DNA of 64,000 nt, from the NCBI GenBank assembly GCA_965223575.1, contig CBDCWZ010000010.1, positions 1 to 64,000 on the forward strand. Reading direction: 5' to 3'. Under the pieces are notes generated by a model that was not told where the DNA came from, searched no databases, and saw only the letters and a list, made by a program, of their open reading frames with translations. The position numbers and the translations under genes are program-made. This document shows positions 919 through 28,204 of the stretch, piece after piece (position 1 is the stretch's first letter; every line of letters begins with the position of its first letter). The stretch comes from Kofleriaceae bacterium (lineage in GTDB: Bacteria; Myxococcota_A; Polyangia; Haliangiales; Haliangiaceae).

Positions 919-1774
919 GGGGTGTCCTCATTAGATCCAGAGGATGGCGCAGGCCAGGAGAAGGAAACCGAGGTAACTTGTTGCCGTTTTTTCATAGCGT
1001 GTTGCGATCCGTCGCCAGCGCTTGATGGTGTGAAAGAAGCATTCCACAAGATAACGCTGCTTGTACATCTCCTTGTCATGCCGGCGTTTCCTCTTCCTTG
1101 ATTTGCCTGATGGAATTACCGGTTTCAGGCCGCGCTCTTTGAGTTCACTAATGATTCGGTCCGAATCGTACGCTCCATCTGCGAGAACAGCTTCACCGTG
1201 AACATAGTCGATCAGTTCCTCGGCCACGGTGGAATCGTGCTGCTGTCCTGGGGTAACAAGGATATGGATAGGTCGTGCTTTCATGTCGACCGCAACATGG
1301 ATCTTCGTGGAGAAACCGCCCCTTGAGCGACCTATTTCGTTTTTTTTGGACCGCCCTTTCCACCCGAAGCATCCTGATGAGTGCGAACAACGGAACCATC
1401 TAGGATCGCACCGATCTCATCATCGTTCAGGCACAAGGCGCGAAATATGTCACGCCAACGGTCCTTGTTCGCCCAGCGCCAGAATCGATTGTACACAGTC
1501 TTCCACGGACCAAATCGCTCAGGAAGATCTCTCCACGGTGCACCCGTTTTTCCAATCCAGTGCACTGCGTTGATAAAACTTCGGTCTCCCCTTTTCGACG
1601 TTTGACCGTGTGGGGGCGGAAGGAGTCCCTCTATCTTGTTCCACTGTTCATCACTGAGTTCGTGGCGCCTCATATAGTGATGTTGATCAATGATCAGTTC
1701 CCGGCGCCAGTTTTTGAACCAACGGCCGGCTAACCGATCGAAATGATCCAGTTTCTAATAGGGACATCCCCTAG
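915..1774 (-). mobile_element. IS5-family (IS427-like) insertion sequence, about 860 bp
   Basis: Imperfect terminal inverted repeats CTAGGGGGTGTCCTCATTAGA (915-) and the reverse complement of 1774- (CTAGGGGATGTCCCTATTAGA). CTAG is present at both ends. Two-ORF transposase inside. Confidence 0.8.
931..1673 (-). CDS. IS5-family DDE transposase, orfA (1332-1673) and orfB (931-about 1340) joined by a -1 frameshift
   Basis: orfA has the DUF4096-type N terminus (GAPWRDLPERFGPWKTVYNRFWRW). orfB has the DDE C terminus (YDSDRI...YKQRYLVECFF..KRWRRIATRYEK). A slippery A8 run (T8 on the + strand, 1340-1347) lies in the overlap. Confidence 0.8.
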
Positions 1775-2732: not shown

Positions 2733-2874
2733 GGGGGCACTCCACGGGTTGGTTGCCGCGGCTGTAAACCGCTTGCACGAGGGTTAACTAGGGTCCTTCG
2801 GACCCGTTGCCAGGGCCGAAAAATTCCATTGCATGGAATTTGTTCACCAACCTGGTCGAGTCCTTCTGCCCCCA
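2733..2874 (+). tRNA. tRNA-Tyr(GUA)-like, split in the T-loop by a 71-nt element (2786-2856)
   Basis: Acceptor gggggca/tgccccc. Anticodon loop ctGTAaa. T arm gaggg-TT[insert]CGAGT-ccttc. D arm poorly paired, short variable loop, no CCA. Confidence 0.55.
2786..2856 (+). repeat. T-loop element copy 1 (71 nt, subfamily B)
   Basis: Starts AACTAGG. P1 gggtcc/ggaccc, P2 ccagg/cctgg, P3 gaaaaattcca/tggaatttgttc. Flanks gagggTT|CGAGTcc. Confidence 0.85.
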
Positions 2875-2983
2875 CGACGGGAGACGTGCGCCCAGAAAAT
2901 GGCGCACACGAAAAACAATGACAGCGAAGCGAAAGGAAAAACGATGACGATGACAAAACGAAAACGGATGTGCGGACAACTTC

Positions 2984-3127
2984 TGCCTCCGTGACGCAAC
3001 GGTAGCGTAACCGACTTTTAATCGGAAAGTTGGGGGTTAACTAGGATGCTTCGCATCCGTTGACGCCACGGTATAAATCCAGCGAACTGGATTTATACCG
3101 TAAGGCGGACGATTCCCTCCGGGGCAC
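2984..3127 (+). tRNA. tRNA-Lys(UUU), split in the T-loop by a 71-nt element (3039-3109)
   Basis: D arm acgc/gcgt. Anticodon loop ctTTTaa. T arm ggggg-TT[insert]CGATT-ccctc. Acceptor halves (tgcctcc / cggggca) pair imperfectly. Confidence 0.55.
3039..3109 (+). repeat. T-loop element copy 2 (71 nt, subfamily A)
   Basis: AACTAGG start. P1 ggatgc/gcatcc, P2 cgcc/ggcg, P3 ggtataaatccag/ctggatttatacc. Flanks gggggTT|CGATTcc. Confidence 0.85.
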
Positions 3128-3128
3128 G

Positions 3129-3221
3129 ACCGCGTTGCTGAAGATTTTGCAGAGCGTAGTGGACGCAGTCCACGGAGCTGCAAAAGTTCAGGCGCGTTAA
3201 CGGTCCTGTAGGGACCCAGTT
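3129..3221 (-). repeat. T-loop element copy 3 (93 nt, long subfamily C, reverse)
   Basis: The reverse complement starts AACTGGGTCC and ends ...CAGCAACGCGGT. Flanks on the element strand are gaTT|CGtg. Lies between tRNA-Lys(UUU) and tRNA-Gln(CUG). Confidence 0.75.
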
Positions 3222-3227
3222 AATCAT

Positions 3228-3298
3228 TCGGAGATCGTCTAACGGTAGGACGACTGGCTCTGGACCAGTAAATCGGGGTTCGAATCCCTGTCTCCGAC
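3228..3298 (+). tRNA. tRNA-Gln(CUG)
   Basis: Acceptor tcggaga/tctccga. D arm gtct/ggac. Anticodon loop ctCTGga. T arm cgggg-ttcgaat-ccctg. The 3' end is abutted by reverse element copy 4. Confidence 0.8.
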
Positions 3299-3367
3299 CG
3301 CGTTGCTGAACAAATTCAACGAAGTGGAATTTTTCAGCCGCGATAACGGGTCCGAAGGACCCTAGTT
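3297..3367 (-). repeat. T-loop element copy 4 (71 nt, subfamily B, reverse)
   Basis: The reverse complement reads AACTAGGGTCCTTCGGACCCGTT...GCAACGCGGT. P2 cgcg/cgcg. Element-strand flanks ctggTT|CGgaga. Excising it restores tctccgaACCA. Confidence 0.85.
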
Positions 3368-3502
3368 AACCAGAACGAAACTGCGGTGTTCGCGACACGA
3401 GTGCCTTGAGTGGCCAGGGTGAACGACATCATCGGTGGATTCGCGATCTTTGACAACTGAATAGCGACGACGACAACGCGGGGCGTTTCCCGACGCCCCA
3501 TT

Positions 3503-3578
3503 TCCCACTTTGGCGTAGGTGGTCCGCGCGCCGGTCTGAAGAGCCGGAGGACCTGGTTCGATTCCAGGAGGGTGGGAC
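3503..3578 (+). tRNA. tRNA-Phe(GAA)-like, aberrant acceptor/T junction
   Basis: Anticodon arm ccggt-ctGAAga-gccgg. T arm cctgg-ttcgatt-ccagg. tcccact/ggtggga pair only if 2 extra nt follow the T stem. Confidence 0.45.
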
Positions 3579-3584
3579 TTTTGC

Positions 3585-3737
3585 GGGTTCGTGGTGAAAC
3601 AGGATCATACCGGGTTCTTACCCCGTGAGTGAACTGCGCGCGGCCGAAGGCCGTGCTCGTTACCGCGGTTGAAAAATTCCAGTTTGTACTGGAATTTGTT
3701 CAACAACGCGGTGAGCGTGCAAATCGTTCCGGACCCA
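3585..3737 (+). tRNA. tRNA-Lys(CUU), split between the variable loop and the T stem by an 81-nt element (3632-3712)
   Basis: Acceptor gggttcg/cggaccc. D arm gtga/tcat. Anticodon loop ttCTTac. T arm gagcg-tgcaaat-cgttc. Confidence 0.6.
3632..3712 (+). repeat. T-loop element copy 5 (81 nt, hybrid: GC-rich P1 plus B-type P3)
   Basis: AACTGCGCGC start. P1 gcgcggcc/ggccgtgc, P2 cgcg/cgcg, P3 gaaaaattccag/ctggaatttgttc. Atypical flanks gagTG|GAgcg. Confidence 0.75.
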
Positions 3738-3749
3738 CTACTCGCGTTT

Positions 3750-3893
3750 GCCCCTGGAAGCATCTGGGCGAGGCTAGCCGGCTGTCTACCGGCCGAGGAG
3801 GGTTAACTAGGATGCTCCGCATCCGTTGACGCCACTGTACAAATCCAGCGAACTGGATTTGTACAGTAAGGCGGACGATTCCCTTCAGGGGCG
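3750..3893 (+). tRNA. tRNA-Asp(GUC), split in the T-loop by a 71-nt element (3805-3875)
   Basis: Acceptor gcccctg/caggggc (perfect). Anticodon arm gccgg-ctGTCta-ccggc. T arm gaggg-TT[insert]CGATT-ccctt. Confidence 0.65.
3805..3875 (+). repeat. T-loop element copy 6 (71 nt, subfamily A)
   Basis: AACTAGG. P1 ggatgc/gcatcc, P2 cgcc/ggcg, P3 tgtacaaatccag/ctggatttgtaca. Flanks gagggTT|CGATTcc. Confidence 0.85.
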
Positions 3894-3933
3894 CTTTGGA
3901 AGCGCAAGCCAACTGGCGATGGCACCCGATTCG

Positions 3934-4027
3934 ACCGGGTTGCTAAACTTTTGCGAAGCAGAGCGGATGTTCGTCCGCGGAGCTGCAACAAGTTTAGACG
4001 CGGTGACGGGTCCGAAGGACCCTAGTC
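3934..4027 (-). repeat. T-loop element copy 7 (94 nt, subfamily C, reverse) in an anticodon loop
   Basis: The reverse complement starts GACTAGGGTCCTTCGGACCCGTCACCGCG and ends ...CAACCCGGT. Element-strand flanks cccgagTT|CGAAtcggg. Confidence 0.75.
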
Positions 4028-4042
4028 AACTCGGGGCAGGTT

Positions 4043-4117
4043 AACTGCGCGCGCCTTCGGCGTGCTCGTTAACGCCGCTGTACAACTCCAGTTGCTGGAT
4101 TTGTACAGCAAGGCGGA
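4043..4117 (+). repeat. T-loop element copy 8 (75 nt, hybrid: GC-rich P1 plus A-type P3)
   Basis: AACTGCGCGC. P1 gcgcgcc/ggcgtgc, P2 cgcc/ggcg, P3 ctgtacaactccag/ctggatttgtacag. Flanks gcaggTT|CAACTcc. Confidence 0.8.
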
Positions 4118-4140
4118 CAACTCCTGTCGCTTCCGCCGAT

Positions 4141-4223
4141 GGAAGGTAATCAGGCTGCGGAGCCTGGCCCGGCTGCTACCCGGTGCGCGCCAACAGCGTC
4201 TGGCTCGACTCCAGTGCCTTCCG
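4141..4223 (+). tRNA. tRNA-Ser(GCU), class II
   Basis: Acceptor ggaaggt/gccttcc. Anticodon loop ctGCTac. Long variable arm. G73. T-loop ctcgact. Confidence 0.7.
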
Positions 4224-4227
4224 CAAT

Positions 4228-4302
4228 GGCCCGGTCGTCTAATGGTCAGGACACGAGGCTTTCAATCTCGGAATCGGAGTTCGATTCTCCGTCGGGTCAC
4301 CA
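4228..4302 (+). tRNA. tRNA-Glu(UUC)
   Basis: Acceptor ggcccgg/tcgggtc. D arm gtct/ggac. Loop ctTTCaa. T arm cggag-ttcgatt-ctccg. Encoded CCA. Confidence 0.85.
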
Positions 4303-4303
4303 C

Positions 4304-4375
4304 GGGCTGATAGTGATAGTGGGAACACGCTGCTTTCGCACGGCAGAAAGCCGGGTTCGAATCCCGGTCGGTCCA
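4304..4375 (+). tRNA. tRNA-Ala(CGC)
   Basis: Acceptor gggctga/tcggtcc with G3:U70. Loop ttCGCac. T arm ccggg-ttcgaat-cccgg. Begins 1 nt after the preceding tRNA. Confidence 0.8.
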
Positions 4376-4391
4376 CTTTAGCTCCTTCAAT

Positions 4392-4467
4392 GGGCACGCA
4401 TGTACCAAGGGGGCGAGCTGGCCTTGCAAGCCGGCTGTGGTCGGTTCGATTCCGACCGTGTCCACCA
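4392..4467 (+). tRNA. tRNA-Ala(UGC), D arm poorly paired
   Basis: Acceptor gggcacg/cgtgtcc with G3:U70. Anticodon arm ctggc-ctTGCaa-gccgg. T arm gtcgg-ttcgatt-ccgac. CCA. Confidence 0.6.
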
Positions 4468-4474
4468 TCCAATA

Positions 4475-4620
4475 CCAGGTGTAAGTCAGCGGCAGACGGC
4501 ATCGTTTGGGACGATGCAGACGGAGGTTAACTAGGATGCTCCGCATCCGTTGACGCCACTGTACAAATCCAGCGAACTGGATTTGTACAGTAAGGCGGAC
4601 GATTCCTCCAGGGGGCACCA
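4475..4620 (+). tRNA. tRNA-Pro(UGG), split in the T-loop by a 71-nt element (4529-4599); acceptor halves non-complementary
   Basis: Anticodon arm catcg-ttTGGga-cgatg. T arm ggagg-TT[insert]CGATT-cctcc (perfect). 5' ccaggtg versus 3' agggggc do not pair. CCA present. Confidence 0.5.
4529..4599 (+). repeat. T-loop element copy 9 (71 nt, subfamily A)
   Basis: Nearly identical to copy 6. Flanks ggaggTT|CGATTcc. Confidence 0.85.
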
Positions 4621-4634
4621 CACGCATCGATCTT

Positions 4635-4708
4635 CCGCCGGTAGTTCAACGGGAGAACTGTCGCCTGATAAGCGGCCAATGGTGGTTCGATTCCACCCTG
4701 GCGGACCA
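4635..4708 (+). tRNA. tRNA-Ile(GAU)
   Basis: Acceptor ccgccgg/ctggcgg. D arm gttc/gaac. Loop ctGATaa. T arm ggtgg-ttcgatt-ccacc. CCA. Confidence 0.85.
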
Positions 4709-4709
4709 T

Positions 4710-4784
4710 GGTGATCGTAGCTCAAAGGTAGAGCACTCGGCTGTGACCCGAGCGGTGGGAGTTCGATTCTCCTCGATCACCCCA
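4710..4784 (+). tRNA. tRNA-His(GUG) with G-1
   Basis: G-1 opposite C73. Acceptor gtgatcg/cgatcac. D arm gctc/gagc. Loop ctGTGac. CCA. Confidence 0.85.
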
Positions 4785-4796
4785 ACTTCCTTTTCA

Positions 4797-4870
4797 GCGG
4801 GCTTGGCGTAACAGCAGCGTATCAGGCTTCCAACCTGAGGGTACGGGTGCAATTCCCGTAGCCCGCACCA
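4797..4870 (+). tRNA. tRNA-Gly(UCC)
   Basis: Acceptor gcgggct/agcccgc. Anticodon arm tcagg-ctTCCaa-cctga. T arm acggg-tgcaatt-cccgt (unusual T-loop). CCA. Confidence 0.75.
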
Positions 4871-4872
4871 AC

Positions 4873-4943
4873 GCCTTCGTAGCACAGGGGCAGTGCACTG
4901 GTTTCGTACTCCAGGGACGTGGGTTCGATTCCCGCCGAAGGCT
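4873..4943 (+). tRNA. tRNA-Thr(CGU)
   Basis: Acceptor gccttcg/cgaaggc. D arm gcac/gtgc. Loop ttCGTac. T arm gtggg-ttcgatt-cccgc. Confidence 0.75.
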
Positions 4944-4947
4944 CCGC

Positions 4948-5018
4948 TTCGGTGTCGTCCAACGGCAGGACAGCGGTCTTTGAAGCCGACGACCGGGGTT
5001 CGAATCCCTGCACCGGAA
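4948..5018 (+). tRNA. tRNA-Gln(UUG)
   Basis: Acceptor ttcggtg/caccgga. D arm gtcc/ggac. Loop ctTTGaa. T arm cgggg-ttcgaat-ccctg. Confidence 0.75.
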
Positions 5019-5022
5019 CTGC

Positions 5023-5096
5023 GCCTCTCGTAGCCATCTGGGAAGGCACCTGCCTTGTAAGCAGGCTAGGCGGTTCGATTCCGACGAGGGGCTCCA
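5023..5096 (+). tRNA. tRNA-Thr(UGU)
   Basis: Acceptor gcctctc/gaggggc. Anticodon arm cctgc-ctTGTaa-gcagg. T arm ggcgg-ttcgatt-ccgac (1 mismatch). CCA. Confidence 0.65.
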
Positions 5097-5101
5097 TCTA
5101 T

Positions 5102-5173
5102 TCCTCCGTGGCTTAACGGTAGAGCACCCGGCTGTTAACCGGGGATGTGCAGGTTCGACTCCTGCCGGGGAGC
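5102..5173 (+). tRNA. tRNA-Asn(GUU)
   Basis: D arm gctt/gagc. Anticodon arm cccgg-ctGTTaa-ccggg. T arm gcagg-ttcgact-cctgc. One C:A mismatch in the acceptor. Confidence 0.7.
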
Positions 5174-5176
5174 TAT

Positions 5177-5329
5177 GTCGCTATCGTCCAGTTGGCGAGG
5201 ACGCCGGTCTCTCAAGCCGGAAACGGCGGGTTAACTAGGATGCTTCGCATCCGTTGACGCCGCTGAACAAATCCAGCGAACTGGATTTGTTCAGCAAGGC
5301 GGGCAAGTCCCCCTCCCCTAGCGACGCCA
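5177..5329 (+). tRNA. tRNA-Glu(CUC), split in the T-loop by a 71-nt element (5233-5303)
   Basis: Acceptor gtcgcta/tagcgac (perfect). D arm gtcc/ggac. Loop ctCTCaa. TT[insert]CAAGT. The 3' T-stem side carries 5 extra nt. CCA. Confidence 0.6.
5233..5303 (+). repeat. T-loop element copy 10 (71 nt, subfamily A)
   Basis: AACTAGG. P1 ggatgc/gcatcc, P2 cgcc/ggcg, P3 ctgaacaaatccag/ctggatttgttcag. Flanks gcgggTT|CAAGTcc. Confidence 0.85.
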
Positions 5330-5340
5330 TGCGATCGTCG

Positions 5341-5416
5341 ACCGCGTTGCTGAACAAATTCAACGAAGTGGAATTTTTCAGCCGCGGTAACGAGCACGCC
5401 GAAGGCGCGCGCAGTT
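5341..5416 (-). repeat. T-loop element copy 11 (76 nt, hybrid, reverse)
   Basis: The reverse complement starts AACTGCGCGCGCCTTCGGCGTGCTCGTTACCGCGG and carries a B-type P3. Element-strand flanks ttgTT|CGacga. Confidence 0.8.
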
Positions 5417-5443
5417 AACAAGAGCTATTGAGGCCAAGGGGTT

Positions 5444-5514
5444 GACTAGGGTCCTTCGGACCCGTCACCGCGGCTGTAATCCTCCAGTAAACTGGATGAT
5501 TACAGCAACGCGGT
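5444..5514 (+). repeat. T-loop element copy 12 (71 nt, B-like variant)
   Basis: GACTAGG start. P1 gggtcc/ggaccc, P2 cgcg/cgcg, P3 ctgtaatcctccag/ctggatgattacag. Flanks aggggTT|CGATTcc. Confidence 0.8.
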
Positions 5515-5535
5515 CGATTCCCACCGTCGGCTCCA
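5515..5535 (+). tRNA. Orphan tRNA 3' fragment (half T-loop, T stem, acceptor, CCA)
   Basis: cgatt-cccac-cgtcggc-t-cca follows copy 12. Only about 25 nt lie upstream between copies 11 and 12, so the 5' two-thirds of the gene are missing. Confidence 0.4.
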
Positions 5536-5543
5536 ATCACTAT

Positions 5544-5615
5544 GCCTCCACCCAAGGATGGGACGCGGCGCTACGAACGCTGTCGATGAAGGTTCGAGTC
5601 CTTCTGGAGGTGCCA
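5544..5615 (+). tRNA. tRNA-Arg(ACG)-like with a compact D arm
   Basis: Acceptor gcctcca/tggaggt. ccca-agga-tggg hairpin directly after the acceptor. Anticodon arm cggcg-ctACGaa-cgctg. T arm gaagg-ttcgagt-ccttc. CCA. Confidence 0.55.
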
Positions 5616-5617
5616 AT

Positions 5618-5687
5618 ACCACCGCACGTGGACTCGTGGCCTGGGGTTCCGAACCTTGGTGAAGCAGTTCGATTCTGCTCGGTGGAC
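5618..5687 (+). tRNA. tRNA-Arg(CCG)-like with a compact D arm
   Basis: Acceptor accaccg/cggtgga (6 of 7 paired). cacg-tggact-cgtg hairpin. Loop ttCCGaa. T arm agcag-ttcgatt-ctgct. Confidence 0.5.
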
Positions 5688-5785
5688 CGGGTTGCTGTAG
5701 TTATGCAAAGCGGAGCGGACGGAAGGTCCGCGAAGTTGCAGAACTACAGGCGCGATAACGGGTCGAGCGTAGCGAAACCCTAGTT
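5686..5785 (-). repeat. T-loop element copy 13 (100 nt, subfamily C, reverse)
   Basis: The reverse complement starts AACTAGGGTTTCGC and ends ...CAGCAACCCGGT. Element-strand flanks aagTT|CCaccg. Abuts the tRNA-Arg(CCG)-like 3' end. Confidence 0.7.
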
Positions 5786-5793
5786 AACTTCAT

Positions 5794-5860
5794 GGGCGAC
5801 GATCTGGGATCAGCTTGGGCTCCAAATCCGAGCAGCGGGGTTCAATTCCTCGGTCGCCTG
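5794..5860 (+). tRNA. tRNA-Trp(CCA)-like with a compact D arm
   Basis: Acceptor gggcgac/gtcgcct. gatc-tgg-gatc hairpin. Anticodon arm ttggg-ctCCAaa-tccga. T arm cgggg-ttcaatt-cctcg. 67 nt. Confidence 0.5.
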
Positions 5861-5870
5861 CAACTCTTGC

Positions 5871-5943
5871 AGTCGCGTAGCCCAACGGAAGAGGCGGCAG
5901 GCTTAGAACCTGTGTGTTGGGGGTTCGAATCCTCCCGCGACTA
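5871..5943 (+). tRNA. tRNA with Leu anticodon UAG but a class-I (5-nt) variable loop
   Basis: Acceptor agtcgcg/cgcgact. Leu-type D arm gcc-caacggaaga-ggc. Anticodon arm gcagg-ctTAGaa-cctgt. T arm ggggg-ttcgaat-cctcc. A73. Confidence 0.6.
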
Positions 5944-5946
5944 CTG

Positions 5947-6091
5947 CGGTACGTAGCCCAATCGGCAGAGGCATCCAGTTTAAGCCCGGACCAGTGAGGG
6001 TTAACTAGGATGCTTCGCATCCGTTGACGCCACTGTACAAATCCAGCGAACTGGATTTGTACAGTAAGGCGGACGACTCCCTCCGTACCGA
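5947..6091 (+). tRNA. tRNA with Leu anticodon UAA, class-I variable loop, split in the T-loop (6003-6073)
   Basis: Acceptor cggtacg/cgtaccg (perfect). D arm gcc-caatcggcaga-ggc. Loop ttTAAgc (1 stem mismatch). T arm gaggg-TT[insert]CGACT-ccctc. A73. Confidence 0.55.
6003..6073 (+). repeat. T-loop element copy 14 (71 nt, subfamily A)
   Basis: Same P1, P2 and P3 as copy 6. Flanks gagggTT|CGACTcc. Confidence 0.85.
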
Positions 6092-6098
6092 CCTTCGA

Positions 6099-6243
6099 GC
6101 CAACGTAGCCCAACTGGCAGAGGCACCGGATTCAAATCGCGGACAGTATCGGTTAACTAGGATGCTCTGCATCCGTTAACGCCGCCGAACAAATCCAGCG
6201 AACTGGATTTGTTCAGCAAGGCGGACGACTCCGATCGTTGGCA
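6099..6243 (+). tRNA. tRNA with Leu anticodon CAA, class-I variable loop, split in the T-loop (6155-6225)
   Basis: Acceptor gccaacg/cgttggc (perfect). D arm gcc-caactggcaga-ggc. Loop ttCAAat (2 stem mismatches). T arm atcgg-TT[insert]CGACT-ccgat (perfect). A73. Confidence 0.5.
6155..6225 (+). repeat. T-loop element copy 15 (71 nt, subfamily A)
   Basis: AACTAGG. P1 ggatgc/gcatcc (loop tct), P2 cgcc/ggcg, P3 gaacaaatccag/ctggatttgttc. Flanks atcggTT|CGACTcc. Confidence 0.85.
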
Positions 6244-6249
6244 CAAAAC

Positions 6250-6408
6250 GCGGACGTGGTGGAACGGGATACACGCAACGTTGAGAGCGTTGTGAGCCAC
6301 GTGCTCAATGCCGGTTAACTCGGGGCCTTTGGACCCGTTCTCGGGGCTGAAAAATTCCACGATGTGGAATTTGTTCACCAACCCGGTCGAATCCGGCCGT
6401 CCGCACCA
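6250..6408 (+). tRNA. tRNA-Leu(GAG), class II, split in the T-loop by a 71-nt element (6317-6387)
   Basis: Acceptor gcggacg/cgtccgc (perfect). Anticodon arm caacg-ttGAGag-cgttg. 17-nt variable arm. T arm gccgg-TT[insert]CGAAT-ccggc (perfect). A73 and CCA. Confidence 0.75.
6317..6387 (+). repeat. T-loop element copy 16 (71 nt, subfamily B)
   Basis: AACTCGG start. P1 ggggcc/ggaccc, P2 cggg/cccg, P3 gaaaaattccac/gtggaatttgttc. Flanks gccggTT|CGAATcc. Confidence 0.85.
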
Positions 6409-6441
6409 TCCAGAAACATCAACCCTCAACGAAAGGCAGCC

Positions 6442-6972
6442 ATGACGGCTCAAACACTGTTGTTGTCCGCGGGCTATGAGCCGATCAAGGTCGTCTCTTG
6501 GCAACGCGCGATAACCTTACTCACGCTCGGCAAGATCGAAGTTCTGGAAGAGTATGATCGCGAAGTTCGATCCCCGACCATTGCGTTTAAGATGCCTGCG
6601 GTCGTTCGACTTTTGCAGGTACTCAAGCGCAACAAGAAGGCAGTCAAGTTCTCGCGCATCAACATCTATGCGCGGGATAAGTACCGGTGCCAATACTGCT
6701 GTCGAAAGCTACCCATCGCCGAGTTGACCTACGACCACGTCGTTCCGCGCGCGAAGGGTGGCAAGACGATTTGGCAGAACATCGTGACCGCATGCGAAAC
6801 GTGCAACAGCCGCAAGGGGAACCGGACGCCGGAGCAAGCGCACATGGCGTTGCTCAACCGGCCAACACGGCCGACTTGGGTCCCGGTCATGACGCTTCGG
6901 GTAAACCGCAACACGGCGCCCGATGCCTGGAGAGACTATCTCTACTGGACCGGTGAACTGCAAAGCGGCTGA
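6442..6972 (+). CDS. HNH endonuclease (McrA/COG1403-like, 176 aa) embedded in the tRNA array
   Basis: Motif YRCQYC...LTYDHVVPRAKGG....N.VTACETCNSRKGNR. ATG at 6442 with gaaagg 8 nt upstream. Starts 34 nt after the CCA of tRNA-Leu(GAG). Confidence 0.8.
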   Translation: MTAQTLLLSAGYEPIKVVSWQRAITLLTLGKIEVLEEYDREVRSPTIAFKMPAVVRLLQVLKRNKKAVKFSRINIYARDKYRCQYCCRKLPIAELTYDHVVPRAKGGKTIWQNIVTACETCNSRKGNRTPEQAHMALLNRPTRPTWVPVMTLRVNRNTAPDAWRDYLYWTGELQSG

Positions 6973-7029
6973 CCGCACACCGAATGCCACGGGCCACAGA
7001 TCGGATCCGCGAGCCCGCCGGCATTCACT

Positions 7030-7117
7030 GGAGAGACAAACCGATTGGCGACGGTGCTCGGCTTGAACCCGAGTGAGCGTAACTGCCTTAGGGGTTCGAC
7101 TCCCCTTCTCTCCGCCA
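7030..7117 (+). tRNA. tRNA-Ser(UGA), class II
   Basis: Acceptor ggagaga/tctctcc. Anticodon arm ctcgg-ctTGAac-ccgag. Long variable arm. T arm agggg-ttcgact-cccct. G73 and CCA. Confidence 0.85.
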
Positions 7118-7118
7118 T

Positions 7119-7203
7119 GGAAGGCATCCGAATGGTGAGGACCCCGGTTGGAAGCCGGGCGGGCGACAACGTTGCCTTGAGGGTTCGAGTCCCTCGCCTT
7201 CCG
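7119..7203 (+). tRNA. tRNA-Ser(GGA), class II
   Basis: Acceptor ggaaggc/gccttcc. Anticodon arm cccgg-ttGGAag-ccggg. Long variable arm. T arm gaggg-ttcgagt-ccctc. G73. Confidence 0.8.
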
Positions 7204-7207
7204 CTGC

Positions 7208-7276
7208 GCCTCGCGGGACGGATCCCAGCTGGGTCTTCTAAACCCGGCGCTCCAGGTTCAATTCCTGGGCGAGGTA
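7208..7276 (+). tRNA. tRNA-Arg(UCU)-like with a compact D arm
   Basis: Acceptor gcctcgc/gcgaggt. ggga-cgga-tccc hairpin directly after the acceptor. Anticodon arm tgggt-ctTCTaa-acccg. T arm ccagg-ttcaatt-cctgg. Confidence 0.55.
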
Positions 7277-7277
7277 C

Positions 7278-7345
7278 GGCTCCTCTGATGGACCAGTCCC
7301 GGCTCTTCTAAAGCTGGAGAGAGCGTTCGATTCGCTCAGGAGCCA
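7278..7345 (+). tRNA. tRNA-Arg(UCU)-like (second copy) with a compact D arm
   Basis: Acceptor ggctcct/aggagcc. ctg-atggac-cag hairpin. Anticodon arm cggct-ctTCTaa-agctg. T arm gagcg-ttcgatt-cgctc. Confidence 0.55.
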
Positions 7346-7538
7346 CTTCGCGCCCCGAACACGCGAAGACTCCTACAGCTTCGCGCGTATTTCGCCACCT
7401 CAACCGTACTGGTCATTGATCCGGGTGGATGTCCGCCCATCGCACGCCGAACTTCGCAAGGTACTTGCGAACACGATCTGAATCGTTGGCGCTCGAGACT
7501 TGGGCGAAATCGATACGTTTCGAAATACGGCGAAATAA

Positions 7539-7580
7539 GGGGTCAGACTGAAGTTATAACTTCAGTCTGACCCCACTTTT
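7539..7580. terminator. Perfect 16-bp hairpin, terminator-like, downstream of the tRNA array
   Basis: ggggtcagactgaagt-tataa-cttcagtctgacccc followed by actttt. Confidence 0.5.
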
Positions 7581-7659
7581 CCCGTCAACCAATTCTCACG
7601 GCTTACTCCAGATTGTTGCCAGCATACGGTTCTCCCGCTATCTCTACTATAATCAATCA

Positions 7660-9251: not shown

Positions 9252-9746
9252 CTACGCAGCGAAATCTTCTTCAACTACCCAGCCTTTTTTAGCTGAACGG
9301 AACCCAAGCCTGAGTGGTATTGCTTCTTCTTCGATTTCTTGCAGTCGATCGATAGGATATTGCTGAATTGGGTCAAAGGTGGTTGCTGCGAGTCGAAGAA
9401 GTCTATCTGCAGTCGAGTTCATTTTTTGCGATCCCGACTCCCATCGCGAAACCGTCTCACGCTCGACGCCAAAGTGTCGGGCGAAGTCAGTCCCAGACCA
9501 ACCGAGTGATTTTCTGAGGAATCGGATTTCCTCCGGTGTGAGACGAGCTGATTTGGTACTAATGGCATAGACGATGACCCGATGAAGTTCCTCGACTTTG
9601 GGAATCCCAACAAACGATTCACCGCACGCACCACAACGCTTTACATTCACACCAATCAAGGTGACGCGAACTCCTTGGGCGTCGTACAGGTGATTTTCTC
9701 TCGCTGACTTGAGTTGCCCACCACAATGTATGCACTTCATGTCCAT
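9252..9746 (-). CDS. MqsA-like antitoxin (YgiT zinc finger plus XRE HTH)
   Basis: CIHCGG...CGACGE zinc ribbon. LTPEEIRFLRKSLGWSGTDFARHFGVERETVSRWESG HTH. Confidence 0.7.
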   Translation of the reverse strand: MDMKCIHCGGQLKSARENHLYDAQGVRVTLIGVNVKRCGACGESFVGIPKVEELHRVIVYAISTKSARLTPEEIRFLRKSLGWSGTDFARHFGVERETVSRWESGSQKMNSTADRLLRLAATTFDPIQQYPIDRLQEIEEEAIPLRLGFRSAKKGWVVEEDFAA

Positions 9747-9755
9747 CTCCTTGAT

Positions 9756-10076
9756 TCAGCGGCCCATACGCCATGCTGTAACGGCCACAAGCTCCAGCTC
9801 ACTCCAGAAAGCAACCACAACAGTGATGCGCTGCGTTCGGACCTGATATCTCCAGGAACCATTTTCCCATTCGCCCTCGCCGACAACGCCGCCACGCATG
9901 ACGTTGCTACAATCAATTTCCGACAAGTTGTCGTTCGCCATTTCCTGCCGTGCATGCTTTGAGTAATAGACGGTTCCATTGGTGATGATTTCTCGGATGA
10001 GCCGTTTTGCGTCCGAACTACTGAGTGGCTCATCCATATGTGATCTTATATCACATATTGACTTATAGTCAAACAC
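9756..10076 (-). CDS. DUF4258-like toxin partner
   Basis: SKHARQEMANDNLSEIDCSNVMRGG pattern. 9 nt upstream of the antitoxin gene on the same strand. Confidence 0.55.
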   Translation of the reverse strand: MFDYKSICDIRSHMDEPLSSSDAKRLIREIITNGTVYYSKHARQEMANDNLSEIDCSNVMRGGVVGEGEWENGSWRYQVRTQRITVVVAFWSELELVAVTAWRMGR

Positions 10077-10168
10077 TGAATCGAATGCCCCCTACTGATT
10101 GAAATATCAACAATTTCGATCGATTGGGAACTAGGGGGAACGGGATGGGAACGGGATGGGGAAACGGG

Positions 10169-10236
10169 ATGGGGACGCGTTTCGGAAGTTCGGAACTTTG
10201 CAATTAGATTTCCGAACTTTCGAAACACGTCCCCAT
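10169..10236. repeat. 68-bp palindromic repeat, copy 2
   Basis: Same sequence family as 9123-9190. Preceded by degenerate tandem acgggatggg units. Confidence 0.8.
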
Positions 10237-10748: not shown

Positions 10749-11273
10749 ATGGTTCGTAAAGTTCTCATTGGACTGGCAGGATTAGCTGGTGTACTTGCCA
10801 CAGTTGCCTGGTTTACAACTTCGTCTCCCAATCAAAACGAGCTGCGAATGATCAATATTAAGAACGCCAAAAATTATTTGGGAGTGTTAGTCGGCGGGCA
10901 GCCCAGCGATGAGGAGCTGAGGCATGCCGCAAAGTCCGGCTATCAGACGATTATTAACTTGCGTACGGCTTCTGAACCGGGGAGCGCTGAAGAAAAAGTA
11001 CTCGCGGAAAAGCTCGGCCTTGTTTACGTTTCGATCCCGACAGCAGGGGAGGCCGGATTGACTCGGGAAAATGCAACAGCTTTGCACGAGGCACTCAAGG
11101 CGGCATCAGGGCCAGTCATGCTTCATTGCGGTAGTGGAAACCGCGTCGGTGGTCTGATTGCTTTGCGCGCACACTATTTGTTAGGAATGCCCGCCAACAC
11201 TGCGCTAGAGGAAGGCAAGAAAGCGGGTCTCACAGGACTCGAACCCGCTGTGACACGCATCCTCGGCCTGTAA
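10749..11273 (+). CDS. DUF442/beta-lactamase-hydrolase-like protein phosphatase-fold protein, exported
   Basis: HCGSGNRVG (HCxxGxR) motif. N-terminal hydrophobic anchor. ATG at 10749 after aaagggggg. Confidence 0.6.
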   Translation: MVRKVLIGLAGLAGVLATVAWFTTSSPNQNELRMINIKNAKNYLGVLVGGQPSDEELRHAAKSGYQTIINLRTASEPGSAEEKVLAEKLGLVYVSIPTAGEAGLTRENATALHEALKAASGPVMLHCGSGNRVGGLIALRAHYLLGMPANTALEEGKKAGLTGLEPAVTRILGL

Positions 11274-11295
11274 CGGAACGACCAACTCAGGGGGG

Positions 11296-11363
11296 ATGGG
11301 GACGCGTTTCGGAAGTTCGGAACTTCGCAATTAGATTTCCGAACTTTCGAAACACGTCCCCAT
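11296..11363. repeat. 68-bp palindromic repeat, copy 3
   Basis: Same family. Followed by tandem cattgtt(t)tc units. Confidence 0.8.
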
Positions 11364-11489
11364 TGTTCCATTGTTTTCCCATTGTTTTCTTCGGGCTCGA
11401 TTAGGGGCGAACATCCTCACCGGAGCTGAAATGGAAAACGCCCGACCAGGAATGGAAACCTAACCGGCCGTCTTCAAACTGCTTTCGCG

Positions 11490-11567
<78 letters not shown>

Positions 11568-11739
11568 TGCGTTGTAAGTTACTGCAATACTTAAAGTTGT
11601 CAAGAGGCAATCCGGCATCGTTTCATTCATAAGTGCCTAGTCCCCGGTTTGGTCTCCGGTTTTTGGCAACAAACATCGGCACAATTTGGCGAATCCGATG
11701 CTACTGCTTTTCATCAAGCCCAACATTTGAATAGTGCTC

Positions 11740-11835
11740 TTGCATCTCGACGGTGACATGACCGGTCAACGCCCGCCGAACGACGGGGTCAATCTTCGCC
11801 CTTCGAATCATATCCGAAAACACGCACACGCTACG
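11740..11835 (-). pseudogene. Tyrosine-integrase C-terminal fragment
   Basis: About 80% nt identity to 20950-21040 inside the integrase ORF (..[15 protein letters not shown]..). Confidence 0.4.
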
Positions 11836-11929
11836 CTAAAGGTTCGCCAACAGCTACCAGTCAGGTGGTCGGATTCGCCCCAGGGCTTCGTCGGTTGCGA
11901 GTTCAAGTTCGGCTAACTCGGTTACGGCA

Positions 11930-12008
11930 CCACGACTGGTCGTCTGCCCGTTTGCTCAAGTGGACGATGGGCTCCTAGGTCCGCCCACCAGATTTCACCG
12001 CACTTCAT
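11930..12008 (-). pseudogene. MazF/PemK-like toxin, N-terminal fragment only
   Basis: MKCGEIWWADLGAHRPLEQTGRRPVVV, then homology to the full copy at 32299-32562 ends. Confidence 0.6.
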
Positions 12009-12053
12009 CTAGCATCTTCTTCATCTAGCATCTTCTTCATCTAGCATCTTCTT
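12006..12053. repeat. 16-bp tandem repeat x3 (catctagcatcttctt)
   Basis: Three perfect units. The paralogous locus at 32.56 kb has one unit. The unit spans the antitoxin stop and toxin start junction. Confidence 0.85.
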
Positions 12054-12267
12054 CAGCCAGCATCTCGCACCACTCATCTATTCCTTGATCGGCAAGGGCA
12101 AGATCTTCTTCCTCGCCGGTATTAGCGAGCCTATTTAGGTCCCACCGCGCGGGGTCGGGATGACGGAGCACAATCACAGAGACATGCTCGCCTTGGCGAA
12201 GATCTAGACGTTGGCTGGGTTTGAGCACACCGTCACTGTATTCAGCTTCGATCGGCTTCACATTCAA
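12037..12267 (-). CDS. DUF104/AF2212-type antitoxin (76 aa)
   Basis: MNVKPIEAEYSDGVLKP...L..GE.V.V pattern. Paralogue at about 32.56-32.79 kb. Confidence 0.55.
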   Translation of the reverse strand: MNVKPIEAEYSDGVLKPSQRLDLRQGEHVSVIVLRHPDPARWDLNRLANTGEEEDLALADQGIDEWCEMLAEEDAR

Positions 12268-12341
12268 TAGATTAGCACGTTCGGCAACTATGGGCTATCG
12301 CCGTGATTTTAGCCCTAGAAAAAGCAACAAAAGCGAGAATT

Positions 12342-12471
12342 TCAAACAGATCGAGCGGTGTCTTCCCAAGAGGTTCCTTCGTCGGGATCCCGTTCGTACT
12401 CTGCTAGCCGTTCGTCCAATACTTCGCGGTGCGACCGGCTCGTAGAGCTTATCGATCTCGGTGGGACTCAT
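12342..12471 (-). pseudogene. Addiction-module-component-like small gene, frameshifted
   Basis: C-terminal HREVLDERLAEYERDPDEGTSWED is in a different frame from the N-terminal MSPTEIDKLYEPV. Confidence 0.35.
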
Positions 12472-12676
12472 CGCATGTCTCCGCGCAAGTTCGTTGCTCT
12501 CCTGCGCAAAGTTGTGACCTTTGAGCGTTGTCGCCGATCCTCGACGTGCTGGTTTAAACCCCACGAGTCACCGCATATGCACTATCACTTGGCCAGCCGC
12601 TCAACAGCTGCCCCCGAGGCCGCGGTTACTCCGAGTGCAGAAGGCCAGACACTCGGAAAGAATTGTCCTGCGCAGC

Positions 12677-15600
12677 TCATTGCCGTTCGTCCAGTTCGGC
12701 AAGCAGCTTGGCCAGCACTTTGCTGCGCTCTGGATCGCGCAGTAGTGTTTCACACGCTGCAAGTAGCTCTGCGCGGTTGCCCAAGTAGGCATCGGTTGTC
12801 TTCTCCAGGTACCGCGCTACGCGGAACAAGTCTGAGATCGGGACGGCACTTTTCCGTTTGCGGGAAGCCCGAACTGGCAACCAGCGTGGTCTCTGTGCGG
12901 GCTTGCCGGTCGGGGCAGGCGCCTTCCACGGACCAGGAGGCCTTGGGCCGACACGGAGGGGGCGACCCTCGCGGGTTGACGCCGCGTCCACAGGTAGCCA
13001 GCGCGAACCGTCGTTTGTTTCAACCAGCGCCATTGCCCACAGGTGATCCGGCTCGTCTACGAAACCGCGGTCAAACGTCCAACCCGTAGCGACAACAGCG
13101 GGAATGCCGGCGCGCCGGAGCAGTTCGCAAGCCAGTGCGTTGAGCTCATAACAGACGCCACGCCCCAGGGTGTCGGCGTCACTGCTTGCGTGCAGCGCCG
13201 CGACGTGTACATTGGAACGGCCGCGGCTTCGCTGCCGGAGCCAGGCTGCAACAGAAGGATCTTCGAGATAGGTGGGATCGTAAACGTAGCGCTCTCGAAT
13301 GAAGGAACGCACCGTTTCGGCCGCTGTGAGTACATCGGTCTCGTTGCGCGCGCTCGCCGCAATATCGTGCACTTCGTCCGGTAATTCCGCGTCCGCCACC
13401 GTGGGTTCCAGAAGTGCTCTGGGCGCACGACGCGGTCGGTCGCCGTTTTCCATGTTGGGCGGTTCAAAGAGCTCAACCTCGACAGTCACGACGGCGTCCT
13501 CTTTGTTAAGCCAAACAGAAAGCCCAGCGGCGTCAACCAGATGATCGAGACCATTCCCCATACCGTCGGCCTGTAGGAGAGACACTTGACCAAATAGGGG
13601 CACGGGTATCACCGCCTCTCCACCAGGCAACTTACCCCGCAAACGGACTCGACCCACAGAATCGGTGCCACGAAACCACGATCCATCGCCCACGAAACGC
13701 TGCCAGCTCTGACTCCAGGAGCTAAAGCCCGCGTAGAGGACTTGTGGCGCGTACTGGTATGGAAGTGGCAGCGACGCGGGCGAGTGGGCGAGACCGAAAG
13801 TTCCCGCCCGCTGGCGGTCAGCAAGCCAGCCTGTTCCGTCGGCTAGTTGTTCCTCGAGATTGCTCCGCGATCGAAACCAGCGGCGATCGCGCTTGGGGTC
13901 ACGACGCGCTGGGGGCGGACGTCTTTGCGACCTCGACCCAGACGGACCGCCAGCTGGCGGCGGAGCAAAAGAGCTTGGCTCGGACTTCGTGGAGTCCCGG
14001 CGGTCTGGCCGCGGCTTGGTCTCCTCATCTTGTTTGTCGTTTCCACGCAGCCATTGCCGCATGCGTGTCAAGAACCCTGGGCCCTCTTCCCCTTTGGGTG
14101 GGCTGGGCTCGCTCGGCTTCGGCTTGGCGGACTCTTCTGGCTCTGCGCCATGCTGGAACGTCTCCTGGATTGTGGGGCCGGTTGCGTTCTCCACAACGCT
14201 TGGGGGGCGACTGGTTTCTCTCGCTCCAATGCTGCTTACTACGCCGTAATGAGCTAGGTAGCTGGCCCAGGCAGAATGTTGCGCACCGTCAGCGAGTACA
14301 ATTTCGAACTCGCCTACGCCTTCATCCCCTGCGAATCTAATCCGCGCCGCTGCTTCTGGTAGCAGGCATACGTACAATTCCTCGTGCCTGTGGCATGCTA
14401 CAGCAAGTTGAGGAGGCTTGTGGCCACCACTGTCTACCAGAAGATCGAGGCACCGCGGCAGACGTTCGGCCCAAAGTTTCCCTTCGGCCTTGGCGACGCC
14501 ATCGGCCCAGTCCACGGTTGCACACAATTCTGAAATAAAGGAGACCACGTCGCGCTTTCCGGGCCGGCGTGCGATGCGCAAGGCCGACGCGAGGCGCCCG
14601 AGCTGTGCTCCCCGTGACCAATCGCCTCGTTGGTCTCCGAACCGGTAGCGGGCACCTTCGATGACAACCTCCCCGGGTCGCCGGAGCACGCCCAGGTCGT
14701 CAACGAGCATTGGAACATGACTGAGCGCATCGCGTAACTTGGTGCCGTCGATGCTGCCGGATGTGAGACCGGCATTGAGCCATGCCAGTACCTCGCTGCT
14801 CGCAGGCGGCTGAGCGGCGATGGTGGCCAGCACGTCCTCGAGGTCCGCGCTGGCACTATCTCGGGTGCCGATCCATTCATGTGCGTTGGGCACCCGATGA
14901 ACGACTTCAGGATGCACGAGACGATCTTCGCGTTCCCCGATGAGATCAGTGAGGTTATCCGAGGGCCAGTACAGTGCCTCGGGACGATGGGGTGTGCCAT
15001 TCTGATCGACGAGCCACGTGCGGTCACGAAGGGCCAGGGCATTTCGCAACTCCGGAATGCGGTGACCCAACCCCGCTACGTAACACGCAAGAGCGACTTT
15101 GGCGTCCGGGCCCGGTTTCAGCGCATTGCCGTCGAGAAATGAGCGTAAAGCATCTTCGCTGAGTTCTGCATCGGCTCCCGCGGCGACAAGCAGCGCTACC
15201 GTTTCGGCGGCCTCGTAGCGGCGAGACACCCGCTGGGGCATCGGGTCGGCGAAGCGCGCAATCAGATCACCATCGTGCGGCGTAGACGCCAATAGGGTTC
15301 TGGGCCGCTTAAACTCGCCGCTGGCACTTTCGACTCGGAGACGTTTTCGCAGCTGCAAGCGGCGCACACGATCACCGAACCCCTCTTGGTCGGGCCGCAG
15401 CGCCCGCGCGAGATGAGCAATGATCGACGCGAGCCTGTCGCCATCACGAGCGTCAATCGCCGCATCGGCGGCATCTAGCAGCTTGTCGCTCAGGGGGCGT
15501 AGCTGTTTGGTTGCGGGTCGATAGGCTGCGCGTAGCCATGTGACAAGCCGACTGGGCAGCTCGTCGGCGGGATTCCAATCGATGCCCAGGTCGGGCAGCT

Positions 15601-28024: not shown

Positions 28025-28154
28025 CGCCTGATGCCCAGGCGCTCGCTCGTTTTCCGATCCGATATCGGAAATACGCTCGGTCGCCCGGACTTTGGCCAGT
28101 GATCATGCAGCTCTACATACTTTTCCGTGCGGAGGTTCATTTGGATCTTGCCTT

Positions 28155-28194: not shown

Positions 28195-28204
28195 ATAAGA
28201 AACC

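Follow-up and report, generated by a model that had tools for sequence, protein, structure and literature searches.

In textbooks, bacterial tRNA-Leu is a class II molecule with a long variable arm, and the locus described here raises the question of why three of four adjacent tRNA genes with Leu anticodons lack that arm. The genes lie at positions 5871-6408 of the window, the term used here for the whole 64,000-nucleotide stretch that was analyzed (Kofleriaceae bacterium, assembly GCA_965223575.1, contig CBDCWZ010000010.1, positions 1 to 64,000 of the forward strand). A sequence-only reading had proposed that the short genes may be decoys, recoding tRNAs, or decay products of a Leu family. 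The explanation that we consider likely is a joint one: the four genes would be the Leu block of a mobile L-array, the short ones would belong to a class I-format tRNA-Leu family, and genes 2 to 4 would have been split by an element that moves at the DNA level.

Four tRNA-Leu genes upstream of an HNH gene

Direct reading confirmed the four adjacent Leu-anticodon tRNA genes (UAG, UAA, CAA, and GAG) as head-to-tail cloverleaves. The end of this block is separated by 34 nt from the start codon of an HNH endonuclease gene. The features are as follows:

5871-5943/4, + strand, gene 1, tRNA-Leu(UAG); called as Leu(tag) by ARAGORN and scored at 57 bits by the Rfam tRNA model; uninterrupted, all stems intact
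5947-6091, + strand, gene 2, short-arm tRNA-Leu(UAA); variable loop CCAGT, A73; T-loop interrupted; 76 nt after excision
6099-6243, + strand, gene 3, short-arm tRNA-Leu(CAA); variable loop ACAGT, A73; T-loop interrupted; 75 nt after excision
6250-6408, + strand, gene 4, class II tRNA-Leu(GAG); 17-nt variable arm TGAGCCACGTGCTCAAT, CCA encoded; T-loop interrupted; 88 nt after excision
6442-6972, + strand, HNH endonuclease gene, 176 aa; Pfam HNH_5 (3.6e-17) and HNH; directly downstream of the Leu block

All four genes have Leu anticodons. As had been read from the sequence, genes 1 to 3 combine a Leu-type D arm and A73 with variable loops of 5 nt (GTGTT, CCAGT, and ACAGT), and the arm of more than 10 nt that characterizes class II tRNA-Leu is present only in gene 4 (17 nt). 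The D arms of genes 1 to 3 share the pairs G10-C11-C12/G23-G24-C25, an apposed C13.A22, and the loop AAYYGGNAG; the D arm of gene 4 is of class II. Gene 1 consists of the acceptor stem AGTCGCG/CGCGACT, the D arm GCCC-AACGGAAG-AGGC, the anticodon arm GCAGG-CTTAGAA-CCTGT, the variable loop GTGTT, the T arm GGGGG-TTCGAAT-CCTCC, and A73. The other three genes owe their lengths of 145-159 nt to 71 extra bases in each T-loop (6003-6073, 6155-6225, and 6317-6387). As they stand, genes 2 to 4 were detected neither by ARAGORN nor by the Rfam tRNA model; after exact in silico excision, ARAGORN called them Leu(taa), Leu(caa), and Leu(gag).

Two loci of one metagenome, L052 and L053, carry orthologous arrays beside large serine recombinases, with an HNH gene in the same position whose product is 96% (L052) or 86% (L053) identical to the window protein. 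Sample ERZ25072999 contains two related arrays. In L053, Leu(tag), Leu(taa), and Leu(caa) lie just upstream of the HNH gene and are uninterrupted genes of 75-77 nt, among them the ortholog of gene 2. In L052, Leu(taa) is interrupted and Leu(caa) doubly so; the set also includes Leu(tag) and, as the ortholog of gene 4, a Leu(gag) of 88 nt that is intact (9877-9964). Because the same block thus recurs upstream of orthologous HNH genes (tag-taa-caa in L053, tag-taa-caa-gag in L052, and cag-caa-gag and the like in others), the arrangement is not a matter of chance.

The weakened anticodon stems that had been ascribed to two of the genes were found in genes 2 and 3. The gene 2 stem (TCCAG/CCGGA) contains a single A30.C40 mismatch, and the perfect stem of its L052 ortholog (TCCGG/CCGGA) points to a G30>A change. 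The gene 3 stem (CCGGA/CGCGG) contains two mismatches, G30.G40 and A31.C39; L053 and L055 both keep C40, so that G40 is private to the window (C40>G). To judge from the sequence, only gene 1 is clearly intact within the window, and genes 2 to 4 are probably inactivated or decaying rather than specialized, unless excision at the RNA level exists. This doubt about their function arises from the T-loop insertions and not from the short arm, and the label of decay product would fit at most the private stem mutations of genes 2 and 3.

Short-arm tRNA-Leu genes form a conserved family

Related tRNA genes were surveyed in 83 loci, namely, 80 metagenomic loci encoding relatives of the HNH protein, L052, L053, and the locus of Streptomyces phage Stella (L054). 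ARAGORN identified 34 tRNA-Leu genes in these loci; 30 of them were 74-78 nt long, and all six Leu anticodons were covered. The tRNA-Ser genes of the same loci measured 83-94 nt. The Stella gene, 75 nt long and annotated as tRNA-Leu, has the same short design, and further short Leu genes were present in a Mycobacterium plasmid array (tag, 78 nt; taa, 77 nt) and in a Nostoc plasmid array (taa, 75 nt). Gene 1 matched 65 phage records, and among the 40 matches listed, all 39 that were annotated were tRNA-Leu; its identity to the tRNA-Leu genes annotated in Streptomyces phages was 83-85%. Across Streptomyces, Mycobacterium, Gordonia, and Thermobifida phages and the Myxococcus phage Mx1, the phage genes (74-78 nt) were 77-86% identical to gene 1 and shared with it the D arm GTAG(C/A/T)CCAA..GG.AGAG(G/T/A)C, a 5-nt variable loop ending in U48, and A73. 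They differ from the window genes in being uninterrupted, whereas three of the four Leu genes of the window carry a T-loop insertion and two carry stem mutations. The search for similar short-arm genes in phages and arrays that had been suggested thus found them in phages, in plasmid arrays, and in metagenomic HNH loci, and class I-shaped Leu isoacceptors, which had been thought unusual, are not so in this context.

An alignment of 34 distinct short-arm sequences showed that T8, A14, A15, G18, G19, A73, and the T-loop are invariant and that U48 is nearly so. Cloverleaf pairing was present in 97.6% of stem cells, compared with at most 47.5% in slid controls, and compensatory change was seen in 19 of 20 pairs, including those of the 3-bp D stem (pair 11:24 occurs as C-G, A-U, and U-A). 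This pairing and compensatory change imply that the short-arm genes are constrained, working-type molecules and not debris, and the idea that they are decay products as a class does not hold. The family signature (73-78 nt, a 5-nt variable loop, T8-A9-G10-N-C-C13-A14-A15, A22-G-N-C25, and A73) is present in genes 1 to 3, which fit the alignment without gaps except in D-loop length. When the anticodon was masked, the nearest neighbor of 24 of 31 short Leu genes was a short Leu gene with another anticodon, at up to 0.90 identity. Such neighbors indicate duplication followed by anticodon change, and this part of the earlier proposal, an expansion of the Leu family by that route, was borne out.

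By these comparisons, the class I format of tRNA-Leu is general and conserved in mobile tRNA arrays and in many phage tRNA sets, and it is nothing peculiar to this locus. A full-text literature search returned no description of short-arm tRNA-Leu in arrays, and the form carried by arrays and phages appears not to have been described previously.

Identity elements point to leucine

The leucyl-tRNA synthetase (LeuRS) of Escherichia coli reads A73, A14, A15:U48, and G18G19 in a D arm with a 3-bp stem and unpaired 13.22, and it does not require the long variable arm. Seryl-tRNA synthetase (SerRS) does need that arm. Only alanyl-tRNA synthetase, SerRS, and LeuRS are known to ignore the anticodon; Leu anticodons would not be accepted by most other synthetases, which read this part of the tRNA. 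Minimalist E. coli tRNA-Leu substrates without a variable arm were reportedly made in work by Asahara (1993) and Larkin (2002), and animal mitochondrial tRNA-Leu has the class I format. These molecules resemble the window family in that leucylation proceeds without the long arm, with A73, the D arm, and tertiary features carrying Leu identity; they differ in being organellar or engineered, whereas the window family is natural, borne by bacteria and phages, and widespread.

In the 34 aligned short-arm sequences, the positions read by E. coli LeuRS were invariant or nearly so, and the D-stem pairs 10:25, 11:24, and 12:23 covaried. A15:U48 together with A73 was found in 30 of 31 short and in all 5 long Leu tRNAs. 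Pair 3:70 was C-G, G-C, or U-A in all 34 sequences, so that G3:U70, the Ala identity pair, was absent throughout; position 73 was always A, and the Ser identity set of long arm plus G73 was lacking. Overall D-arm identity to other isotypes was uninformative, since it reached 0.8-0.85 for many of them. Because the features read by LeuRS are kept and only the long arm, dispensable for the E. coli enzyme, is missing, the most likely function of the family would be ordinary Leu decoding by supernumerary tRNAs borne on mobile elements. The earlier suggestions of decoy or recoding tRNAs found no support in these ordinary Leu anticodons or in the absence of the Ala and Ser identity sets.

A site-specific element in the T-loops

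In genes 2 to 4, the extra sequence lies exactly between T55 and C56, in the form GGTT[AACTAGG...GGCGGA]CGAyTCC. A covariance model identified 16 copies of this element in the window, all within 2781-6393, and 20 in L052; the same model returned no copy from L053, from the 80 other HNH loci, or from 47 loci matched by pattern. The copies in the window are as follows:

2786-2856, + strand, in the Tyr(GTA) T-loop
3039-3109, + strand, in the Lys(UUU) T-loop
3129-3221, - strand, inverted, 93 nt with extra hairpin, between Lys(UUU) and Gln(CUG); site empty in L053
3297-3367, - strand, inverted, at the 3' end of Gln(CUG)
3632-3712, + strand, in the variable region of Lys(CUU), window only; site empty in L052
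3805-3875, + strand, in the Asp(GUC) T-loop
3934-4027, - strand, inverted, in the anticodon loop (TTCG^AAC) of a Ser(CGA) pseudogene, window only; site empty in L052 and L053
4043-4117, + strand, in the T-loop of the Ser(CGA) pseudogene, window only
4529-4599, + strand, joining a Pro(UGG) 5' half to a Val(UAC) 3' half
5233-5303, + strand, in the T-loop of a degenerate Glu(CUC)-like gene
5341-5416, - strand, inverted
5444-5514, + strand, in a T-loop-like site of a degenerate tRNA
5686-5785, - strand, inverted, 100 nt with extra hairpin, upstream of Trp(CCA)
6003-6073, + strand, in the Leu(UAA) T-loop; 102 bits; empty site in L053, GAGGGTT^CGACTCCCTC
6155-6225, + strand, in the Leu(CAA) T-loop; 99 bits; site empty in L053
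6317-6387, + strand, in the Leu(GAG) T-loop, window only; 77 bits; exact empty site in L052, gccggtt^cgaatccggcc

Multiple alignment and RNAalifold gave a fold of two domains. In the first, a short helix pairs the flanking TT and AAC with GTTRA and encloses a 6-bp hairpin; in the second, a 4-bp closing helix bears a hairpin of 13-15 bp. An additional hairpin at the tip brings some copies to 92-100 nt. Over the 36 copies, 90.8% of cells were paired, compared with at most 40% in slid controls. Compensatory change affected 20 of 29 pairs and was almost entirely from one Watson-Crick pair to another; G:U was restricted to two pairs, the junction pair, where 13 of 27 distinct copies have it, and another at which 3 copies do. 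Neither strand of the element folds better than the other.

Where a site is filled in one array and empty in its ortholog, the element, at gtt^cga, is the whole difference, and no bases are duplicated or lost. Four copies were confined to the window (3632-3712, 3934-4027, 4043-4117, and 6317-6387) and at least five to L052. In the orientation of the element, the left flank ended in GTT in 34 of 36 copies, and the right flank usually started with CGA or CAA. The five inverted copies of the window sit where the minus strand offers this motif; the Ser(CGA) anticodon loop, for example, reads GTT^CGAATC on the other strand. Ten of the 29 GTT^CGA sites in the array were occupied, compared with none of the 36 elsewhere in the window. 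The bare hexamer GTTCGA was therefore rejected as a sufficient target, all 36 sites outside the array being unoccupied, and the counts for the extended motif GGTT^CRAnTC are 25 within the array and only 4 outside.

Pattern scans of viral and genome contigs for the element gave only single chance matches, none of them confirmed by the covariance model; the best candidate, L027, proved unrelated on reading. A blastn search of plasmids with the element returned no match, and an Rfam scan of 2800-7600 at E values up to 1 returned no ribozyme or intron match. The mir-4703 matches in Rfam merely reflected the long hairpin of the element and were discarded. No T-loop-targeting element was described in the literature covered by a full-text search.

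The element has the anatomy of a hairpin miniature inverted-repeat transposable element: its hairpins are subterminal, it lacks terminal inverted repeats, it leaves the target unduplicated, and its target and orientation are fixed. By analogy, it most resembles the palindrome-associated transposable elements (PATEs) derived from the IS200/IS605 insertion sequences (IS) and the repetitive extragenic palindromic (REP) elements or bacterial interspersed mosaic elements mobilized with REP-associated tyrosine transposases, which are likewise small, have hairpins with compensatory changes, lack terminal inverted repeats and target site duplications, and use a short target in fixed orientation. It differs from them in that no Y1 transposase was found here, in hairpin-to-end distances unlike those of IS608, and in its target, a tRNA T-loop motif that has not been reported for such elements in the literature searched. 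From its sequence and distribution, it looks like a site-specific, nonautonomous mobile element acting at the DNA level rather than a demonstrated intron.

Traces of recombination and decay accompany the copies. The tRNA-Ser(CGA) pseudogene (3898-4133) contains an inverted copy in its anticodon loop and a forward copy in its T-loop, and compared with the intact L052 ortholog (6370-6456), it has lost the 16-nt variable arm, which leaves a variable loop of 0 nt. At 4470-4620, the 5' half of tRNA-Pro(UGG) and the 3' half of tRNA-Val(UAC) form a chimera across a single copy, and about 0.8 kb of L052, containing Pro-GGG, Gly-GCC, Met, Ile-UAU, and Pro-CGG, is absent at this point. The chimera at one copy implies that recombination between copies of the element deleted about 0.8 kb. 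Stem integrity showed no clear difference between interrupted and uninterrupted genes, as expected if the insertions are recent; the intact stems of interrupted genes do not by themselves argue for splicing.

The Leu block lies in a probably mobile tRNA array

The four genes belong to an array at 2733-7346 (+), in which about 30 tRNA genes and pseudogenes lie on one strand with the HNH gene embedded among them. ARAGORN called 17 genes natively, 22 (2733-7277) once the element had been excised in silico, and 5 more at a relaxed threshold. The array spans about 4.6 kb, several pseudogenes included, and it has the tRNA density of an L-array (20 or more same-strand tRNA genes at 2 or more per kb); the open reading frame (ORF) at 6442-6972 supplies the conserved HNH gene that such arrays have within or beside them. 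L-arrays, or tRNA array units, have been described as horizontally transferred and supernumerary, with a conserved HNH gene linked to them (PMC8421152, PMC4758250, PMC5966550, and PMC12803027), and the window array matches this type by its tRNA density and its HNH gene. According to one of these reports, rtcB is coregulated with an L-array, and 23 of 26 tRNAs of an Anabaena array are charged in vivo, with no Leu species named in the main text (PMC8421152). Translational stress is reported to induce L-arrays. The window locus shares with L-arrays the dozens of one-strand tRNA genes at more than 2 per kb, the conserved HNH gene, the linkage to rtcB, and the mobile-element setting (a serine recombinase in L052 and L053 and IS elements in the window). 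It differs from them in two features, the arm-less tRNA-Leu and the T-loop-specific insertion element, of which the published array descriptions searched make no mention.

The window array is collinear with those of L052 and L053; it is 94-99% identical to L052, with breakpoints exactly at the ends of the element. Its setting may also reflect horizontal transfer: related arrays adjoin large serine recombinases, flanks differ, and IS5 and IS66 genes lie within the window. The housekeeping tRNA genes of the host lie outside the window. A split IS5-family transposase gene at 931-1673 (-) is immediately upstream of the array, and IS66 TnpB and transposase genes are at 23378-25734 (-). The gene for the RNA ligase RtcB (33543-34691, -) is 27 kb from the array, and in L052, a cluster of RtcR, a 721-aa unknown protein, and RtcB (11051-16655) stands immediately beside it.

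Outside arrays, the HNH family has a wider distribution. ARAGORN found no tRNA in 63 of the 80 metagenomic HNH loci, which indicates that the family exists apart from arrays as well. In 13 metagenomic loci, a tRNA gene lies at most 250 nt upstream of the HNH gene: a short Leu gene in 9, a long Leu gene in 1, His in 2, and Asp in 1. More distant HNH genes adjoin arrays in two further loci (L136 and L137). In phage Mx1 (L138, 2495-3469), a 74-nt tRNA-Leu(UAA) is followed 13 nt downstream by an HNH gene, a small ORF, and then a short tRNA-Leu(CAA); the Mx1 HNH protein is 42% identical to that of the window. The Mx1 arrangement suggests that short tRNA-Leu moves in company with the HNH gene, possibly by homing.

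Besides Leu, tRNA-Tyr, another isotype that is normally class II, takes the class I format in the array: the Tyr(GTA) gene at 2733-2875 is 72 nt long after excision of the element; L053 has a short Tyr counterpart at 4886-4957, and other arrays retain Tyr genes of 86-88 nt. Atypical tRNA-like genes that ARAGORN misses at default settings occur at 5543-5614, 5622-5690, 5792-5858, and 7278-7346; the first is Arg(ACG), the next has a CCG anticodon and an aberrant D region, the third is Trp(CCA), whose D arm is short, and the last is the second Arg(UCU) gene.

The rest of the window encodes chromosomal housekeeping functions, among them the large and small subunits of glutamate synthase (GltB and GltD), HflX, an ABC-F protein, and a DTW-domain protein, in addition to RtcB and the IS5 and IS66 transposases. 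The best named relatives of GltD are from Kofleriaceae, Haliangium, and other Myxococcota (63-72% identity). The housekeeping genes indicate that the window is bacterial chromosome, and a phage genome was rejected as its source on the same grounds. Exact-protein look-ups of the window proteins matched no record.

Weighing the explanations

In the reading that we favor, the four genes would be the Leu block of a horizontally mobile L-array carried in a bacterial chromosome, probably of Myxococcota, upstream of a conserved HNH gene, and genes 1 to 3 would be members of a structurally constrained class I-format tRNA-Leu family that decodes Leu. On either strand, the target of the element would be GGTT^CGAnTC in T-loop DNA, which is not duplicated upon insertion, and genes 2 to 4 would have been split in this way between T55 and C56. 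Its copies would promote deletions through recombination and so erode the array, and private stem-breaking substitutions would have been added in genes 2 and 3. Several observations weigh against parts of this account. Neither the roughly 57 ORFs of the window, examined with Pfam, nor the gene calls of L052 and L053 include a Y1 (HUH) or other plausible transposase. After in silico excision, most interrupted genes have perfect stems, which would fit splicing as well as an insertion too recent for decay, and the presence of RtcB in the window and beside the L052 array makes a cut-and-religate pathway conceivable. The dispensability of the long arm is known for the E. coli LeuRS, which may not match that of this host, and A15:U48 with A73 also occurs in Gln and some Ile tRNAs of the arrays and is thus not unique to Leu.

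An alternative in which all four Leu genes function is that the 71-nt element is a new bacterial tRNA intron, excised from RNA by two endonucleolytic or self-cleavage events and ligated by RtcB. Removal at the inferred boundaries does restore canonical T-loops, after which ARAGORN calls six more tRNAs, most interrupted genes keep perfect stems, and the first helix pairs two T residues of the exon with bases of the element, often as U.G at the junction; an RtcB gene is present in the window and another adjoins the L052 array, and the coregulation of rtcB with an L-array mentioned above would suit such a role. However, 5 of 16 copies in the window and 6 of 20 in L052 are antisense, those in an anticodon loop and an anticodon stem cannot form the same RNA structure from the tRNA transcript, and the target is a DNA motif used on either strand. 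Furthermore, covariation is almost wholly from Watson-Crick to Watson-Crick, no ribozyme or intron family of Rfam matches, inspection of the junctions found no bulge-helix-bulge geometry, the linkage to RtcB extends to arrays without the element, and one doubly interrupted gene is visibly decayed. We therefore regard such an intron as unlikely. Two specific forms of splicing were rejected: archaeal-type splicing, because the junctions TT^AAC and GGA^CGA form no 3-4-3 bulge-helix-bulge, and a group I intron, because 71 nt is too small for the catalytic core and Rfam gave no match. Archaeal tRNA introns at noncanonical positions have reportedly been transposed between tRNA genes in Thermoproteales (Fujishima, 2010). 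They resemble the present element as related short insertions at one position in many tRNA genes, T-arm positions included, and differ from it in having a bulge-helix-bulge cut by EndA, neither of which is evident here, and in that antisense and intergenic copies exist here. A mixed possibility, that the element of 71-100 nt is a new tRNA intervening sequence that spreads as DNA and is removed at TT^AAC and GGW^CGA with ligation by RtcB, is in our view also rather improbable.

The remaining alternatives concern the short arm itself. That the short-arm Leu tRNAs are decoys or replacements escaping toxins or defense nucleases that recognize the class II arm would suit their carriage by phages and mobile arrays and the pattern in which Leu, and sometimes Tyr, lacks the arm and Ser retains it, as SerRS requires. 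tRNA arrays have moreover been called a putative antidefense system (PMC12803027). No nuclease or toxin was identified here, however, and the proposal is compatible with ordinary Leu charging and does not replace it; sequence cannot tell a decoy from a working tRNA, and we hold this explanation to be unlikely. Charging with another amino acid, so that Leu codons are recoded, has a precedent in the class I tRNAs with UAG anticodons that carry Thr or Ala in yeast mitochondria (PMC7609411). In the present family, the universal absence of G3:U70, the lack of a long arm or G73, which rules out Ser identity, and the representation of all six Leu anticodons, which fits plain Leu decoding, speak against it. 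Most other synthetases would, as stated above, reject Leu anticodons, and recoding is accordingly very improbable. Even harder to sustain is the view that recent decay within this genome stripped three class II Leu genes of their variable arm. A variable-arm deletion did occur in this array, in Ser(CGA), and the anticodon stems of genes 2 and 3 are weakened; however, the short form is common to L052, L053, distant metagenomic arrays, mycobacterial and cyanobacterial plasmids, and phages, all four stems show compensatory evolution, and nothing of the variable loop (0 nt) survived the deletion in Ser, in contrast to the Leu family with its conserved loop of 5 nt and U48.

Other features of the window

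Downstream of the array, an MqsA-like antitoxin with a helix-turn-helix domain is encoded at 9252-10076 (-), next to a small ORF with a weak, subthreshold match to DUF4258; the two may constitute a toxin-antitoxin pair. A short tandem repeat of GGGAACGGGATGG-like units appeared in pattern-search output at about 10126-10180. An HTH_21 ORF at 20514-21412 (-) lies beside a weak integrase-like ORF. At 27000-29401, two macro-domain proteins, one of them fused to an ADP-ribosylglycohydrolase fragment, flank an NrtR-type Nudix regulator.

Implications

A conserved tRNA-Leu of class I format is routine in mobile arrays and in many phages, where a short tRNA-Tyr occurs at times and tRNA-Ser keeps its arm; the loss of the arm in Leu and Tyr and its retention in Ser fit what the synthetases need. 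Arm loss may help these tRNAs evade factors that recognize class II tRNAs, a proposal that was not encountered in the literature searched. The element in turn conceals tRNA genes from standard finders: in the window, at least six genes are missed, and genes 2 to 4 of the Leu block are among them. If splicing did remove the element, this would be the first intron known from a bacterial T-loop. Working tRNAs would in that case be made from the interrupted Leu genes too, and array expression would be tied to Rtc RNA repair through splicing.

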